DNA from: Acidobacteriota bacterium
GTDB lineage: Bacteria > Acidobacteriota > Terriglobia > Acidiferrales > UBA7541
Direction: 5' to 3'
DNA length: 64,000 bases
NCBI GenBank assembly: GCA_003223215.1
Contig: QHYH01000091.1
Location: 60,696 to 124,695, forward strand
Each line of letters starts with the position of its first letter. Within the stretch, counting starts at the first letter, position 1. Below are positions 19,146 to 49,741 of this stretch, in pieces. Below the pieces are notes generated by a model. The model ran no database searches. It saw only the letters and a list, made by a program, of their open reading frames with translations, and was not told where the DNA came from. A program made the translations under genes and the position numbers.

Positions 19146-19209
19146 AAGAAAAGAGCTGGTTAGAAGGGCGCGCTGTCGTTGCGGCCAAGGCCGCTTGGCC
19201 ACCCATTAC

Positions 19210-19424
19210 CAGGTGGGTCGTAAAACCTCGGCGTTTTTAGGCCGAGGATATAAGGCCCCTCTTTGTTTTCCTTCCGAACTGCTCTATATTTCTGTCCGAA
19301 CGACCTATGGGCGGGTCCTCCGCTGAAGTAGGGCGGTTGTGGGAGGAACCCACCGAAGCCATCTCGGGAAAACAAACCGAGAGGCCGTAGGAATCCTCGC
19401 CGCTTGCGGCGGGGAGGATGTCAA
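19210..19424 (+). mobile_element. Non-autonomous IS200/IS605 (IS608-like) mini-element, copy 1
   Basis: Preceded by TTAC; left hairpin CCTCGGCG-TTTTTA-GGCCGAGG; right end GAAT-CCTCGCCGCTTGCGGCGGGGAGG-ATGTCAA; no plausible coding ORF; second copy at 48035-48278. Confidence 0.9.
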
Positions 19425-26931: not shown

Positions 26932-28835
26932 TCACTTACCGTCAACCGAAAAAGCCAGAAGCACGTTTCCTGGGGCCGCTCCCAAAAAAGCGTATCCCGA
27001 GTTGACAAACAGCGTTCCTCCTACGATGACCGCTCCCGGGCCATCGAGCGCGCCGCCATGCGCCTTCACCCCATTCGCGGTTTTGAAATCCTTGGCGGTG
27101 GCCACATCCCAAAGGATGTGGCCATCCTCGGCGGAGTACGCCCGCAAGTGTCCGTCCAGTCCGCCGGAAAAGACCACGCCGGGAATGGCGGTCACCGCGG
27201 CCGATTGTGCTGGACTGCATCCGGGGCTGTCTCCACAGCCCGGATGCGGTGTCTGCCAGGCAATCTCGCCGGTGTCCAGCTTCAGCGCGAAAAGGCCGCC
27301 GCCAATCTTCGGATCCAATTGCGCCGCGAAGCCCAAGGCCGTATCGCGCGCTCCCGGCGTTCCCGGAGGCACGGGGTTCATGGCTACGTCCGACAGGGCC
27401 ACGTACACGTTCTTTTCGTCCGCTGCGGATCCCCATTGCACCCCGCCAGCCGGTCCGCCGCGGCCGACGCGCCGCTGCCAGAGCACCGCACCCTGCTGGT
27501 CCGGGTCCAAAGCGTAGACCACTCCGGATTTCTGGCCGGCAATCAACGCACGGCGCCCCTTACCCAGTTCCACCAGAATTGCTGAAGAGCCAAAATCAAA
27601 ATCGGGTCCATTCGCCTCGGGGCAGTTCGCGCGCATCTCCGCCGGCGCTCCGCAATTCACGTTGTACGCATCGCCTTTGGTCATTTGCTGCGACCATTTC
27701 AGTTTTCCCGTTTCCAGATCAAACGCGAGAAAAGAGTCCGAGGTCGGCGCCGCGGGGTCCGAATAGCTGTCGCCCGTTGTCACGTAGAGCGTTCGGCTCT
27801 TCAAGTCCGCGGTTGGCGAAGACCACACTCCCGCTCCCGAGGGCCCCCACAGTTGCACACCGACTTTGCTCTTGCGTATGGGCCTGGGTTCTTCCGCAAC
27901 GGTATAGCTTTTCCAGAGAACTTTTCCTGTGGCCGCTGCGAGCGCAGCAATGCTCCCGCGAAATTTGCAGCATTCGTACGTGGGATTCCCGGCAAACACT
28001 TCTTCCATCGAGGAAGTAGGAACATATAGTCTACCTTCGGCCAGCGCAGGGGCTCCGGTAATCACCGCCCCCGGAAATTCTTCGACATGCGTCTTCCACA
28101 GAAGCTTCCCGTCACAGCGTCCACGGCATAAGCGTTCGCGTGCTGGTCGCCGAAGTACGCCGCCCAGCCGCTGCCGTTCTGTCCCAGGCTGACCGCTGTC
28201 CGCACCGGGCCATCCGTGTCAAACGCCCAGTAGATGCAAGCAGTCTCCGCACTGAGCGAATAGACTCTTCGTTCAGAGCTCCCAACAAAGACGCGCCCTC
28301 CCGCCACCGTGGCCTGTGCCTGGGCGCGCAAGACGCCGGGAAAACCGAAGGCCCACTTCAGCTTGAGTTTCGGCACTTGCTCGGCCGTGAGTTGCGCCAT
28401 CTCTGCGGGCTGAAAACGGTGTTGCCCGAGGTCCACGCCCCAGCCGTTCCAGTGCGGCTTCGCGAGCGGATCCGCAAAGGCGCGTTCTCGATCCGCGGCG
28501 CAGAAAGCGGCTGCGGGGATTTGCTCCTTCACCAACTGCCTTCCCGTAAGAAATTCAGCCAGGTCGGCGATTTGCGCCGTTGACAATCCCAGTCCTTCGA
28601 CGGCCATGCTTCCGCCCAGCAAAGCAAGCCGGACGTTCTCCGGCGACATCTGCTGCAGCCGAGCGCGGTTTGGCGCGCGGGGCGCCGCACCTTCGTGGCA
28701 GGCGGCGCAGCGCTGCTTGTAGAGCGCTTCACCGGCCCGGTTTGCTTCCTGCTGCTGGGCTTTGGCTCGACCGCTAACGATGGCCGCAAAAACAATGAGA
28801 AAGCTCAGCCGTGGGACTTTCGGAAAGACTTTCAT
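26932..28835 (-). pseudogene. Cytochrome c plus PQQ beta-propeller dehydrogenase (polyvinyl-alcohol dehydrogenase-like), 1-nt frameshift near 28107
   Basis: CAACH in 28062-28835; adding one A restores DAVTGKLLWKTHVEEFPGAVITGAP, joining ORF 26932-28065 (W-motif repeats, DFDFGS). Confidence 0.85.
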
Positions 28836-42067: not shown

Positions 42068-42115
42068 GGAGCGGCTCAGGAGAAGGCGGGCGAGAGGTTT
42101 CGGATCCTGCCTTGC

Positions 42116-42156
42116 CATGTGGGCCGTAAAGCCTCGGCGTTTTTAGGCCGAGGATA
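42116..42156 (+). mobile_element. Solo left end of the IS608-like mini-element
   Basis: CATGTGGGCCGTAAAGCCTCGGCGTTTTTAGGCCGAGGATA nearly matches the left ends at 19210 and 48278; no right end follows. Confidence 0.85.
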
Positions 42157-42163
42157 TGGACGG

Positions 42164-46169: not shown

Positions 46170-46293
46170 GAGCGCACGAAACGCAAGGCTATTTAGCTGG
46201 GTTACAGGGTTCAGGACGCTCCTTTCGGTGGAATCGCGCCGACCTTTGTTCCCGATCCCGGATCGAAACGCATCACTTCATGGAGGCGTCGTT

Positions 46294-48003
46294 GTGACTT
46301 GGACACAAGTTTACGACCCGGTGGGGCATTGGTGGCTTTCCACGATCATCGCGGCTCTCCCCATCCTGGTGCTTCTGGGACTCCTTGCCGGCCTTCGCTT
46401 GAAACCGCACATTTGTGCCGTTGCCGGCGCGGCAACCGCAGTCCTTGTCGCCATTCTCGCCTTTAAGATGCCAGCCCTCCTGGCTGTTTCCAGCTTCTTC
46501 TACGGCTCGGCTTTTGGTTTCCTCAAAATCGTTTGGATTGTCATCGCCGCCGTCTTCCTCTATGACATATCCGTCGAGACTGGCCAGTTCGAGATCATGA
46601 AGCAATCGGTCGCGGCCATTACCCCCGATCGCCGCTTGCAGGTTCTCCTGGTCGCTTTCTGTTTCGGCGCCTTCATCGAAGGCTCCGCGGGATTCGGCGC
46701 GCCCGTGGCCATCGCCGGCGCGTTCATGATCGGACTCGGCTTCAAACCCTTTCAAGCTGCTGCGCTGAACCTGATCGCCAACACTGCTCCGGTAGCCTGG
46801 GGCTCGATCGGCATCCCCGTCCATACGCTCGCGGCGGTCACGGCGCTTAACGAGAGCGACCTCAGCGCCATGATCGGCCGCATCCTTCCCATCACTGCTG
46901 TCACGGTTGCCTTCTGGCTGGTCCGCACCATGGTCAGTTGGAGGGAAACCTGGGAGGTCTTTCCCGCCATCCTCGTTGTCGGCGGATCCTTTGCGACCAC
47001 CCAATGGTTCTGGGCCAATTACCGGGACAGCAATCTCGTGGATATCATCGCCGCCGTCGTTTCCCTGCTCGCCGCGCTGCTTTTTCTCCGCGTCTGGCAA
47101 CCCAAGAGAATCTGGCGCTTTGCCGACGAACCATCCATCAGCGCGGCCGAAGCCCGGGATTCCGTCAAGCACTTCACCACCCGCCAAATTGCCAGGGCCT
47201 GGATGCCCTTTGCCGTCTTGTCGCTCATCGTTCTTGTTTGGGGATTGCCCAGCTTCAAGCTGGCCATGAACCGCGCCACAACTCCCGCCTTCCGAGTCGT
47301 CATGGCGGACGGAAAAGCTCGTCCTGGCCCACCGGGATGGGACTGGCCCTACCTTCACAACAAAGTGCTTCGAACGACTCCGGTCGTGCCGAAACCCACC
47401 GCCGAAGGTGCGCGCTTTGACTTCAATTGGCTCACCGCCACGGGAACCGGGTGCTTCATCGCCGCTCTGCTTACCGGATTTATTCTTGGCCTCAGGCCAA
47501 AGAGACTGCTTTACATTTTCTTCCGAACTTTCGTCCGTCTGCGCTTTGCCATCATGGCCATGACCTGCATGCTGGGCCTTGGTTTCATCACGCGATACTC
47601 GGGCATGGACGCGGTCCTTGGTCTGGCCTTCACACGCACGGGGTGGTTCTTTCCCTTCTTTGGCACTTACATCGGCTGGCTTGGCGTCGCCCTGACCGGC
47701 AGCGATACCTCTTCCAATGCGCTGTTCGGTGGTCTGCAAAAAATCACCGCGCAACAGCTCCATTTGAGCCCCATTCTCATGTGCGGCGCGAACAGCGCCG
47801 GTGGCGTTATGGGCAAGATGATCGATGCGCAATCGATTTGCATCGCTACCGCGGCGACCAATCAGGTTGGCAACGAAGGCGCCATCTTCCGCTTCGTTTT
47901 CTGGCACTCCGTGGCGCTTGCAGCCATCGTCGGAGTCATCGTGATGGTGTACGCCTACGTGTTGCCGCAGTTCATACCCAGCGGATTGAACTTCATTCGC
48001 TGA
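46294..48003 (+). CDS. lctP: L-lactate/glycolate permease
   Basis: FIEGSAGFGAP, ANTAPVAWG, TGSDTSSNALF, GKMIDAQS; GTG 46294 after GGAGG. Confidence 0.93.
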   Translation: MTWTQVYDPVGHWWLSTIIAALPILVLLGLLAGLRLKPHICAVAGAATAVLVAILAFKMPALLAVSSFFYGSAFGFLKIVWIVIAAVFLYDISVETGQFEIMKQSVAAITPDRRLQVLLVAFCFGAFIEGSAGFGAPVAIAGAFMIGLGFKPFQAAALNLIANTAPVAWGSIGIPVHTLAAVTALNESDLSAMIGRILPITAVTVAFWLVRTMVSWRETWEVFPAILVVGGSFATTQWFWANYRDSNLVDIIAAVVSLLAALLFLRVWQPKRIWRFADEPSISAAEARDSVKHFTTRQIARAWMPFAVLSLIVLVWGLPSFKLAMNRATTPAFRVVMADGKARPGPPGWDWPYLHNKVLRTTPVVPKPTAEGARFDFNWLTATGTGCFIAALLTGFILGLRPKRLLYIFFRTFVRLRFAIMAMTCMLGLGFITRYSGMDAVLGLAFTRTGWFFPFFGTYIGWLGVALTGSDTSSNALFGGLQKITAQQLHLSPILMCGANSAGGVMGKMIDAQSICIATAATNQVGNEGAIFRFVFWHSVALAAIVGVIVMVYAYVLPQFIPSGLNFIR

Positions 48004-48034
48004 TGGGGCAAGCTTGTTCCGGTGGAGACAGCCC

Positions 48035-48278
48035 GTGAACATCCTCCCCGCCGCAAGCGGCGAGGATTCCTACGGCCTCTCGGTTTGTTTTTCCGAGATG
48101 GCTTCGGTGGGTTCCTCCACAACCGCCCTACTTCAGCGGAGGACCACGAAGAGGCTTTACTTTTGGGCTGCCCGCCCATAGGTGGTGCGGACAGAAGAAA
48201 TAGAGAGCAGTTCGGAAGCAAAGAAAGAGGGGCCTTCTATCCTCGGCCTAAAAACGCCGAGGCTTTGCGGCCCACCTG
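48035..48278 (-). mobile_element. Non-autonomous IS200/IS605 (IS608-like) mini-element, copy 2
   Basis: On the minus strand TTAC|CAGGTGGG...AAAG-hairpin...GAAT-hairpin-ATGTTCAC; close match to copy 1 with about 29 nt extra internally. Confidence 0.9.
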
Positions 48279-48292
48279 GTAAGTTCCTGCTT

Positions 48293-49741
48293 ATGGACCT
48301 TCGCATCCTCAACGAATTCCGCTCGATCGTCGGCAACGGTGGCCTCATCTGCTCGCCTGAGGAACTGCACACCTACGAATGCGACGGCCTTACGAATTTC
48401 CGCGTACTGCCCCGCGCGGTCTTGCTTCCGTCTTCGACCGCGCAAGTTCAGTCCATAGTGCGTCTGTGCCATCGCGAAAGAATTCCTTTCGTCGCACGCG
48501 GTTCGGGCACGGGCCTTAGTGGCGGTGCCTTGCCTGTCGCAAACGGCATTGTCCTCAGCCTGGCGCGCATGAATCGCATCCGCGAGGTGGACATTCCGAA
48601 TGCGCGTGTTGTCGTCGAGCCGGGAGTCATCAACCTGGACGTCACCGGGCGCGTCCAGTCCCAGGATTATTTCTACGCACCCGATCCTTCTTCGCAATCG
48701 GTTTGCAGCATTGGCGGCAACGTCGCGGAAAACGCCGGCGGCGCGCATTGCCTCAAATACGGCTTCACCACCACGCATGTCCTCGGCCTGGAAGTCGTTC
48801 TTCCCGACGGCTCGCTCGTCCATCTCGGCGGGAAAACGCTCGATACGCCCGGCTATGACCTTGTCGGCGTTTTTGTCGGCTCCGAAGGCACCCTCGGCGT
48901 GGCCACGAAAATCATTCTGCGCATCGTCAAGCGCCCCGAATGCGTTCGCGCGCTGCTGGCTGCGTTTCCGACCACCAACGAGGCGGGCGCGGCTGTCAGC
49001 GGCATCATCGCCGCGGGGATGCTGCCCGCCGCCATCGAAATGATGGACAAGCTCGCGATTCAGGCCGCGGAAGCCGCTGTCCACGCGAACTATCCCGATT
49101 GCGGCGGGCTGCTTCTGGTCGAACTCGACGGCCCACTTGGCGAAGTCGAAGCGCTCATGACCCAGGTCGATGAAATTTGCCGTTCAAACGGTGCTTGGGA
49201 AATTCGCGTCGCGCAATCCGAAGCCGAGCGCGCGCTCGTCTGGAAAGGCCGCAAAGCTGCTTTTGCCGCGGTTGGCCGGATCTCTCCGAACTACATTGTT
49301 CAGGACGGCGTAATTCCCCGCACCGCTCTTCCCCAGGTGATGGGCGAAATCGCACGGCTCAGCCGAGAAAACGGCTTGCGCGTTGCCAACGTTTTTCACG
49401 CTGGCGACGGCAATCTCCATCCGCTGGTTCTGTACGATCGCCGAATCCACGGGCAGGAAGACGCCGCCCTCGCGCTCTCCTTCAAGATTCTGGAAGTCTG
49501 TATCGCCGCCGGCGGCTCCATCACCGGCGAGCACGGGGTCGGCGAAGAGAAAAAATGCATGATGTCCAAAATGTTTGCCGAGCCCGATCTCGCCACCATG
49601 CAGCGGGTCCGCTGCGCCTTCGATCCCTTGCAACTCTCGAATCCTACGAAAGTTTTCCCCACGCCGCGTCTCTGTGGCGAGAAGCCCGGCGAATATCTGC
49701 CCCACCCCGTCGAATCCGCGGGTCTCGCGGAGCGCTCTTAG
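48293..49741 (+). CDS. glcD: Glycolate oxidase FAD-linked subunit
   Basis: RGSGTGLSGG, APDPSSQ, GNVAENAGGAHCLKYG, HAGDGNLHP, GEHGVG. Confidence 0.93.
   Translation: MDLRILNEFRSIVGNGGLICSPEELHTYECDGLTNFRVLPRAVLLPSSTAQVQSIVRLCHRERIPFVARGSGTGLSGGALPVANGIVLSLARMNRIREVDIPNARVVVEPGVINLDVTGRVQSQDYFYAPDPSSQSVCSIGGNVAENAGGAHCLKYGFTTTHVLGLEVVLPDGSLVHLGGKTLDTPGYDLVGVFVGSEGTLGVATKIILRIVKRPECVRALLAAFPTTNEAGAAVSGIIAAGMLPAAIEMMDKLAIQAAEAAVHANYPDCGGLLLVELDGPLGEVEALMTQVDEICRSNGAWEIRVAQSEAERALVWKGRKAAFAAVGRISPNYIVQDGVIPRTALPQVMGEIARLSRENGLRVANVFHAGDGNLHPLVLYDRRIHGQEDAALALSFKILEVCIAAGGSITGEHGVGEEKKCMMSKMFAEPDLATMQRVRCAFDPLQLSNPTKVFPTPRLCGEKPGEYLPHPVESAGLAERS

Follow-up and report, generated by a model that had tools for sequence, protein, structure and literature searches.

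The stretch that fills most of the spacer between an lctP-like and a glcD-like gene in a soil Acidobacterium is a non-autonomous IS200/IS605 mini-element (PATE), derived by internal deletion from an element that carried tnpA and tnpB. This copy, hereafter copy 2, is 244 nt long and lies on the reverse strand at positions 48035-48278 of the window, the 64,000-nt stretch of DNA that was analysed (contig C37 of an 8.8-Mb, 97.7%-complete assembly of 279 contigs). Judged by alignment and covariation, its right half is a homologue of omega-RNA scaffolds, and copy 2 itself is probably a stranded, immobile fossil in the operon spacer. We are highly confident in the explanation as a whole, namely an IS200/IS605 PATE that originated in a single deletion, was inserted in trans and is now stranded.

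Copy 2 lies 31 nt past the lctP stop codon and 14 nt ahead of the glcD ATG, and takes up 244 of the 289 nt of the spacer. The coordinates, the reverse-strand orientation, the preceding TTAC and the distance to glcD given in an earlier note were all confirmed (Table 1). In seven same-genus genomes, lctP is directly followed by glcD across a 40-75-nt spacer with no insert, and glcD has the same start codon (ATG 48293 in the window, conserved in the alignment with the seven relatives). Copy 2 is therefore an insertion in this species. Because no base-perfect empty site (TTAC plus guide) was found in the other species, whose spacers are too diverged, it is the gene architecture from which the insertion is deduced. 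Both junctions of copy 2 were present in four soil metagenomes; the skipping joint of an allele lacking copy 2 was not seen in these four metagenomes, the contigs of which drop rare variants. The glcD frame is open upstream into copy 2 as far as a GTG at 48182 (a 519-aa ORF; region 48182-48292), so a false 37-aa N-terminal extension of glcD is likely in automatic annotation.

Table 1. Features of copy 2, its neighbours and the related autonomous element (window positions unless a locus name is given)
Feature	Position	Strand	Remarks
lctP-like L-lactate permease gene	46228..48003	+	Pfam Lactate_perm, E 1.3e-158; stop codon 48001-48003
GlcD-like FAD-linked oxidase gene	48293..49741	+	Pfam FAD_binding_4 and FAD-oxidase_C
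TTAC target / transposon-adjacent motif	48279..48282	-	directly 5' of the left end, read from sequence
Left end (LE)	48231..48278	-	alignable with both the LE of the G017 element and the C20 LE/tnpA relic
First 16 nt of LE, ending AAAG	48263-48278	-	
LE subterminal hairpin CCTCGGC-GTTTTTAG-GCCGAGG	48241-48262	-	
T-rich middle	48184..48230	-	3' part corresponds to the end of the parental tnpA in antisense
Omega-RNA-type scaffold	48035..48183	-	six helices; derived from tnpB 3' end and right end
27-nt segment earlier called 'extra'	48146..48172	-	spans part of helix 1 (loop, 3' half) and the 5' strand of helix 2
Right-end (RE) subterminal hairpin TCCTCGCCGC-TTGC-GGCGGGGAGGA	48042..48066	-	helix 6: 9 pairs, 6 compensatory
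Right terminus TGTTCAC	48035..48041	-	family consensus TGTCAA
Flank, would-be omega-RNA guide GGGCTGTCTCCACCGGAACA	48015..48034	-	20 nt, assigned by position only
Copy 1 of the same family	19210..19424	+	27-nt scaffold deletion
Solo LE fragment of the same family	42111..42157	+	TTGC (not TTAC) ahead; truncated after GGATAT, directly behind the hairpin
Autonomous G017 element	L175:1435-3148		TTAC LE, reversed 164-aa Y1 tnpA, 391-aa tnpB, omega-RNA, GGAGGATGTCAA

Read on the reverse strand, the left end starts at 48278 with CAGGTGGGCCGCAAAG right after TTAC, and its hairpin is followed by ATAGAAGGCC (family consensus GGATATAAGGCC). Subterminal hairpins are present at both ends and there are no terminal inverted repeats; across subfamilies the hairpins show compensatory changes, and the LE hairpin in particular is preserved by such changes in subfamilies B and C. 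Of all parts of the element, the T-rich middle varies most (diversity 0.10 vs 0.035 in the scaffold). The right half is rich in GC and structured, and all six scaffold helices are intact in copy 2. The RE hairpin would serve a double function, as the structure recognised by TnpA and as the last stem of the omega-RNA. The only ORFs over the 244 nt are chance ones; their frames hold remnants of the tnpA and tnpB ends, and there is no transposase gene.

Two peculiarities had been ascribed to copy 2 in the earlier note. The about 29 nt regarded as extra proved to be the canonical state, since about 20 other copies have them: in a 20-copy alignment the 27-nt segment is found in all other full copies and is deleted in copy 1, and the net length difference between the two copies is 29 nt (244 vs 215). 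The right end was reported as TTCAC rather than GTCAA. The sequence is as stated, with copy 2 reading ...GGAGGATGTTCAC and finishing at 48035; the idea of a different design did not hold, as the terminus differs from the consensus by a 1-nt T insertion (also found in three other copies) and a terminal A>C change. TTCAC thus looks like a mutated right cleavage site, with TCAA as its consensus form. A mutated TCAC site occurs in 3 of the about 21 subfamily A copies (window 48035, C52:76953 and C104:36350), a recurrence that could reflect longer survival of copies that are no longer excisable.

The putative guide is antisense to the operon; it falls within the lctP-glcD spacer, and 11 nt separate its end from the lctP stop codon. 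It matches only itself in the genome, and no second TTAC-flanked target was found in the genome for it or for the guides of the other copies. The GAC just 5' of helix 1 might pair over a long range with the GUC of the terminal GTCAA (columns 5-7 with 165-167 of the scaffold alignment, about 48181-48183 with 48037-48040 in the window), which would close the whole scaffold in the mini-elements. Because these positions never vary, the alignment neither supports nor refutes the pairing.

Copy 2 belongs to a large family. BLAST and nhmmer searches of the assembly gave 44 BLAST matches, including about 21 full-length copies that are 88-95% identical (subfamily A), and all flanks are unrelated. Subfamilies B and C add some 12 full-length, divergent copies, and about 12 fragments have only an LE or only an RE. 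TTAC stands directly ahead of 18 of the 20 close copies with no target-site duplication, and the TCAA terminus is present in 27 of the 32 scaffold-bearing copies (consensus right end GTCAA). Within the window, copies 1 and 2 form an inverted repeat with arms 92-100% complementary (copy 1 arm, 19206-19421). Elsewhere, a subfamily B copy (-) and a subfamily A copy (+) stand head to head at C104:80816-81308 with their left ends about 22 nt apart, and a subfamily B copy at C139:1-95 is truncated by another repeat that is also present on C125, C166 and C213.

A DNA search with the scaffold among 40 relatives returned only two weak matches (70% identity). One, in G019, has no tnpB upstream; the other led to the parent element. 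It sits at the 3' end of a 391-aa ORF in G017, a same-genus genome, and the HTH_OrfB_IS605, OrfB_IS605 and Cas12f1-like TNB Pfam domains identify this ORF as TnpB. The left end of the G017 element reads TTAC followed by CCGGTGGGGCCGTAAAG, the hairpin and GGGATATAAGACC, its terminus reads ...GGGGAGGATGTCAA and ends in TCAA, and its 164-aa tnpA ORF carries HUH-type motifs. Both of its ends align with the mini-element. In addition, the middle of the mini-element corresponds to the first bases after the G017 LE, that is, the antisense tnpA 3' end, and the right half starts immediately 5' to the first helix of the scaffold. A coding remnant was also recognised by translation (...EEPTEAIS... in the mini-element vs ...QEPTEGIPA at the end of G017 TnpB). 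The homology of both ends with this element, the TTAC at 18/20 copies and the lack of target duplication bear out the earlier proposal of TnpA-mediated transposition, here of an IS200/IS605-type mini-element.

The deletion junction AAGACCTA(T/G)GG is common to subfamilies A, B and C, and the same junction was found in gene-less copies of eight other genomes, namely Acidobacteria MAGs and a Candidatus Limnocylindria MAG. The simplest reading of a junction shared by all three subfamilies and by other genomes is a single old deletion lineage. Gene-less derivatives with the same scaffold and unrelated left parts were observed in other phyla, at L061 and L127 (Coxiellaceae MAG) and at L071, L103 and L108 (gammaproteobacterial genomes), so tnpB loss with retention of the scaffold has apparently been repeated.

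Taken together with the anatomy, the following course of events is proposed. An internal deletion in an IS605-type element (TTAC, LE, reversed tnpA, tnpB, omega-RNA and an RE ending in TCAA) would have founded the lineage once, leaving the LE, some 40 nt from the 3' part of tnpA, and the complete scaffold of about 150 nt with the RE. A Y1 TnpA acting in trans would then have inserted copy 2 as single-stranded DNA 3' of the bottom-strand TTAC in the lctP-glcD spacer; the copy number and the ends suggest that mobilisation proceeded via a single-stranded circle. A transcript of the reverse strand would be an omega-RNA whose 3' guide is the right flank of copy 2 itself. With a cognate TnpB in trans, this RNA would guide a cut at the emptied site (TTAC + GGGCTGTC...), by which the element would be restored after excision, the expected target together with the adjacent motif being TTAC + GGGCTGTCTCCACCGG. 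At present, with the right site mutated and cognate tnpA and tnpB preserved as fragments, copy 2 would be left immobile in the spacer. The data show that copy 2 belongs to this family, where it originated, that its scaffold is homologous and covaries, that divergence is uneven, that the element is an insertion relative to other species and that family members are transcribed; mobilisation in trans, guide use, present immobility and any effect of copy 2 on lctP or glcD are inferences.

The scaffold was further characterised with a pattern built from its conserved blocks, which retrieved more than 115 loci in public genomes. At 34 of these, a near-full TnpB ORF (40-73% identical to G017 TnpB) terminates within the scaffold motif; the hosts belong to Acidobacteriota, Proteobacteria, Chlamydiota and others. 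The scaffold aligns with the G017 tnpB 3' end and with 28 TnpB-linked loci. RNAalifold, applied to 27 sequences (copy 2, other mini-elements and TnpB-linked loci), predicted six helices with compensatory changes in 21 of 30 pairs. Paired cells reached 94.9%, compared with 76% in column shuffles (0/500 reached the observed value) and 41-51% in slid controls. Among the gene-less mini-elements alone (13 sequences from 9 genomes with the shared junction), 17 of 35 pairs were compensatory. Moreover, the sense strand of copy 2 folds better than its shuffles (z = -3.0), whereas the operon-sense (+) strand is not clearly better (z = -1.7; 11/200 shuffles). The Rfam scan of the window at gathering thresholds gave no match; a permissive scan yielded only HgcC (RF00062), which was rejected at 12.2 bits against a threshold of 50 (E = 2.5, 48024-48146) and was confined to the RE hairpin region.

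Divergence along the element is uneven. In the 18 subfamily A copies compared, nucleotide diversity was 0.11 in the LE, 0.10 in the middle and 0.035 in the scaffold; private substitutions per site amounted to 0.44, 0.46 and 0.16, and shared variants per site to 0.21, 0.21 and 0.02, respectively. The scaffold differed significantly from the LE plus middle for both private substitutions and shared variants (Fisher, p = 2e-6 in each case), being 3-4 times less diverged than the left half with singletons depleted about 3-fold. Uniform divergence, named in the earlier note as the pattern that would speak against better conservation of the right-end scaffold, was not seen, so that claim stands. By a tally of counts, the scaffold differs from the consensus by 3.3% in LE-less fragments vs 1.7% in full copies. 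This unevenness is consistent with constraint on the scaffold; it could also come from gene conversion, from composition-dependent mutation, given that the left half is AT- and homopolymer-rich, or from alignment noise next to indels.

No intact cognate tnpB was found in the assembly, where the best tblastn matches to G017 TnpB are 31-32% identical and belong to other clades. A closer match occurs only on C269 (about 28100-28350) as a 54-aa relic, 82% identical, which is fused by a deletion to an RE hairpin ending GGAGGAGGTCAA. Cognate TnpA is likewise present only as relics, namely a 50-aa piece on C20 (90% identical) and smaller pieces. At C20:25664-25870, TTAC and an LE adjoin the last 50 codons of the cognate tnpA, and Pfam Y1_Tnp matches this relic. 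C116 and C195 encode intact TnpAs with 35-39% identity, and C116 and C190 bear LE-like CCGTAGAGCC-hairpin-GGATATAA motifs. The TnpB and TnpA Pfam matches on other contigs were considered as an autonomous parent in the genome itself and set aside, as they represent other clades at 31-39% identity.

Contig ends with tnpB or tnpA mark places where multi-copy IS elements interrupted the assembly. Such IS605-family genes of other clades were observed at the ends of C25, C42, C189, C190, C257 and C277, and a k-mer overlap walk from the tnpB-contig ends to the RE-bearing contigs gave no link. Because the assembly is fragmented and several tnpB contigs end inside tnpB, the absence of the cognate genes is likely, not proven, and the genome could still encode an intact cognate tnpA or tnpB that the assembly does not contain. 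The left halves are about 6% off the consensus, so no transposition burst has occurred recently. With the cognate genes reduced to wrecks and the right site mutated, copy 2 would be stranded and immobile.

RNA of family members was seen in soil metatranscriptomes. In four metatranscriptomes from one of the soil-metagenome studies, contigs cover family copies and reach into unique flanking sequence for copy 1 and for those on C248, C80, C104 and C226. For several copies, these directionless, low-depth contigs span the scaffold and 34-324 nt of the RE-side flank, and one contig crosses the junction between the LE of copy 2 and glcD. Otherwise, 7 kb of neighbouring genes were almost silent in these metatranscriptomes. 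The RNA contigs have a depth of 2-6 words and are directionless, some of them are chimeras of several copies, and part of the signal may stem from DNA carry-over. No intrinsic terminator or sigma-70-like promoter was predicted inside copy 2 on either strand. Guide use and an uncoupling of lctP from glcD by the hairpins, the latter proposed in the earlier note, are so far unsupported; on identity and conservation the note is largely right.

Gene-less IS200/IS605 elements with omega-RNA have already been described, and this family is a further example. PATEs are gene-less IS200/IS605 derivatives known from Haloquadratum (PMC3119063) and Geobacillus stearothermophilus (Meers et al. 2023, PMC10055086), where they 'often encode omega-RNAs' that need TnpB in trans (PMC10055086). 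Like them, the elements described here are a few hundred nucleotides long with LE and RE hairpins, occur in multiple copies, are presumably mobilised in trans and carry an omega-RNA-type scaffold without tnpB. They differ in host group, here a soil Acidobacterium, and in IS clade. Unlike in the described PATEs, the assembly retains nothing but relics of cognate tnpA and tnpB, one deletion junction is found across at least nine genomes and at least two phyla, and the mini-elements show compensatory changes among themselves.

The likeness to IS608 (ISHp608) of Helicobacter pylori rests on the rules of the ends. IS608 inserts 3' of TTAC, has TCAA as its right cleavage site and AAAG as its left guide sequence, and mutating TCAA abolishes the transpososome complex (PMC3201880). 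The family shares TTAC, TCAA and the AAAG 5' of the left hairpin foot, as well as imperfect palindromes close to either terminus and the lack of a target duplication. Meanwhile, the left cleavage site lies 16 nt from the hairpin here vs 19 nt in IS608, the right one about 7 nt vs 10 nt, the parental gene order is IS605-like with divergent tnpA and tnpB, unlike IS608, and copy 2 ends in TTCAC instead of TCAA. RNAs termed sotRNAs are known at tnpB 3' ends, and earlier work has connected both HgcC and RNAs derived from PATEs with transcripts of the tnpB 3' end (PMC4615843). As in ISDra2-type omega-RNAs and sotRNAs, a structured region overlaps the tnpB 3' end and reaches the RE, the flank takes the position of the guide, and the last stem is the RE hairpin, with a UUCA/UUUA loop there in many relatives. 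Unlike the ISDra2-type omega-RNA, the scaffold stands alone without tnpB; it matches no Rfam family.

Several other explanations were weighed. The element is short, intergenic, rich in hairpins, high in copy number and devoid of ORFs, as would be expected of a REP/REPIN-like or other host repeat whose likeness to IS608 ends is coincidental. However, its ends and interior align with an autonomous tnpA/tnpB element of the same genus, its right half aligns with more than 30 tnpB 3' ends, and the EEPTEAIS remnant matches the QEPTEGIPA end of TnpB; we regard this explanation as hardly credible. Active homing in trans deserves more consideration. In this case the omega-RNA would still work, a TnpB elsewhere in the cell (an unassembled one, or one of the distant TnpBs on C25, C195 or C42) would re-cut the emptied site, and copy-by-copy selection would keep the element. 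Since each guide helps only its own copy, survivorship per copy would explain scaffold conservation, which is 3-4 times that of the left half even for private substitutions; the greater divergence of LE-less solo scaffolds, the family RNA in metatranscriptomes and the precedent of PATE omega-RNAs acted on in trans (Meers et al., PMC10055086) point in the same direction. Against this stand the lack of any TnpB more than 32% identical to the cognate type in a 97.7%-complete assembly, apart from the 54-aa relic, the equally fragmentary cognate TnpA, left halves about 6% off the consensus with no sign of recent movement, and the mutated right cleavage site of copy 2. On balance, active homing is unlikely.

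Alternatively, copy 2 might have been exapted as a regulator, with its structured RNA blocking or terminating lctP read-through, with the insertion providing a start for glcD transcription, or with a reverse-strand transcript acting as an antisense RNA to the lctP 3' end. The spacer, about 45 nt before the insertion, now measures 289 nt and has a strong fold (-117 kcal/mol), the glcD 5' end and its junction with the LE are represented among the RNA contigs and lctP is not, and a PATE-derived RNA with a phenotype has been reported in Halobacterium (PMC4615843). Nevertheless, no sigma-70 promoter or intrinsic terminator is predicted inside the element on either strand, the fold of the + strand does not clearly surpass that of its shuffles, and the missing lctP reads carry little weight because the RNA contigs are directionless and only 2-6 words deep. 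With about 35 other copies at unrelated sites, nothing singles out copy 2, and exaptation seems improbable to us. A bolder conjecture is that the orphan scaffolds are still under purifying selection without cognate TnpB, through a distant TnpB-like protein or a role in host regulation, with reverse-strand antisense RNA at the lctP-glcD junction tuning lactate and glycolate utilisation; we consider this quite improbable. A PATE of single-deletion origin, inserted in trans and now stranded, is the explanation that we prefer.

A high-copy repeat in a soil Acidobacterium is thereby explained, which is of value for annotation. The family also offers a clean case of an omega-RNA-only transposon lineage whose fold was held by compensatory changes while it spread across genomes. 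Additionally, it defines an omega-RNA clade with a TTAC TAM and a ...GGAGGATGTCAA boundary, the more than 30 TnpB partners of which could be mined for genome-editing scaffolds. Beyond previously described PATEs, the added interest is modest and lies in a lineage that is old, widely spread, conserved in fold and orphaned in this genome, and which may therefore serve as a testable case for the fate of guide-RNA mini-elements after the loss of their nuclease and transposase.
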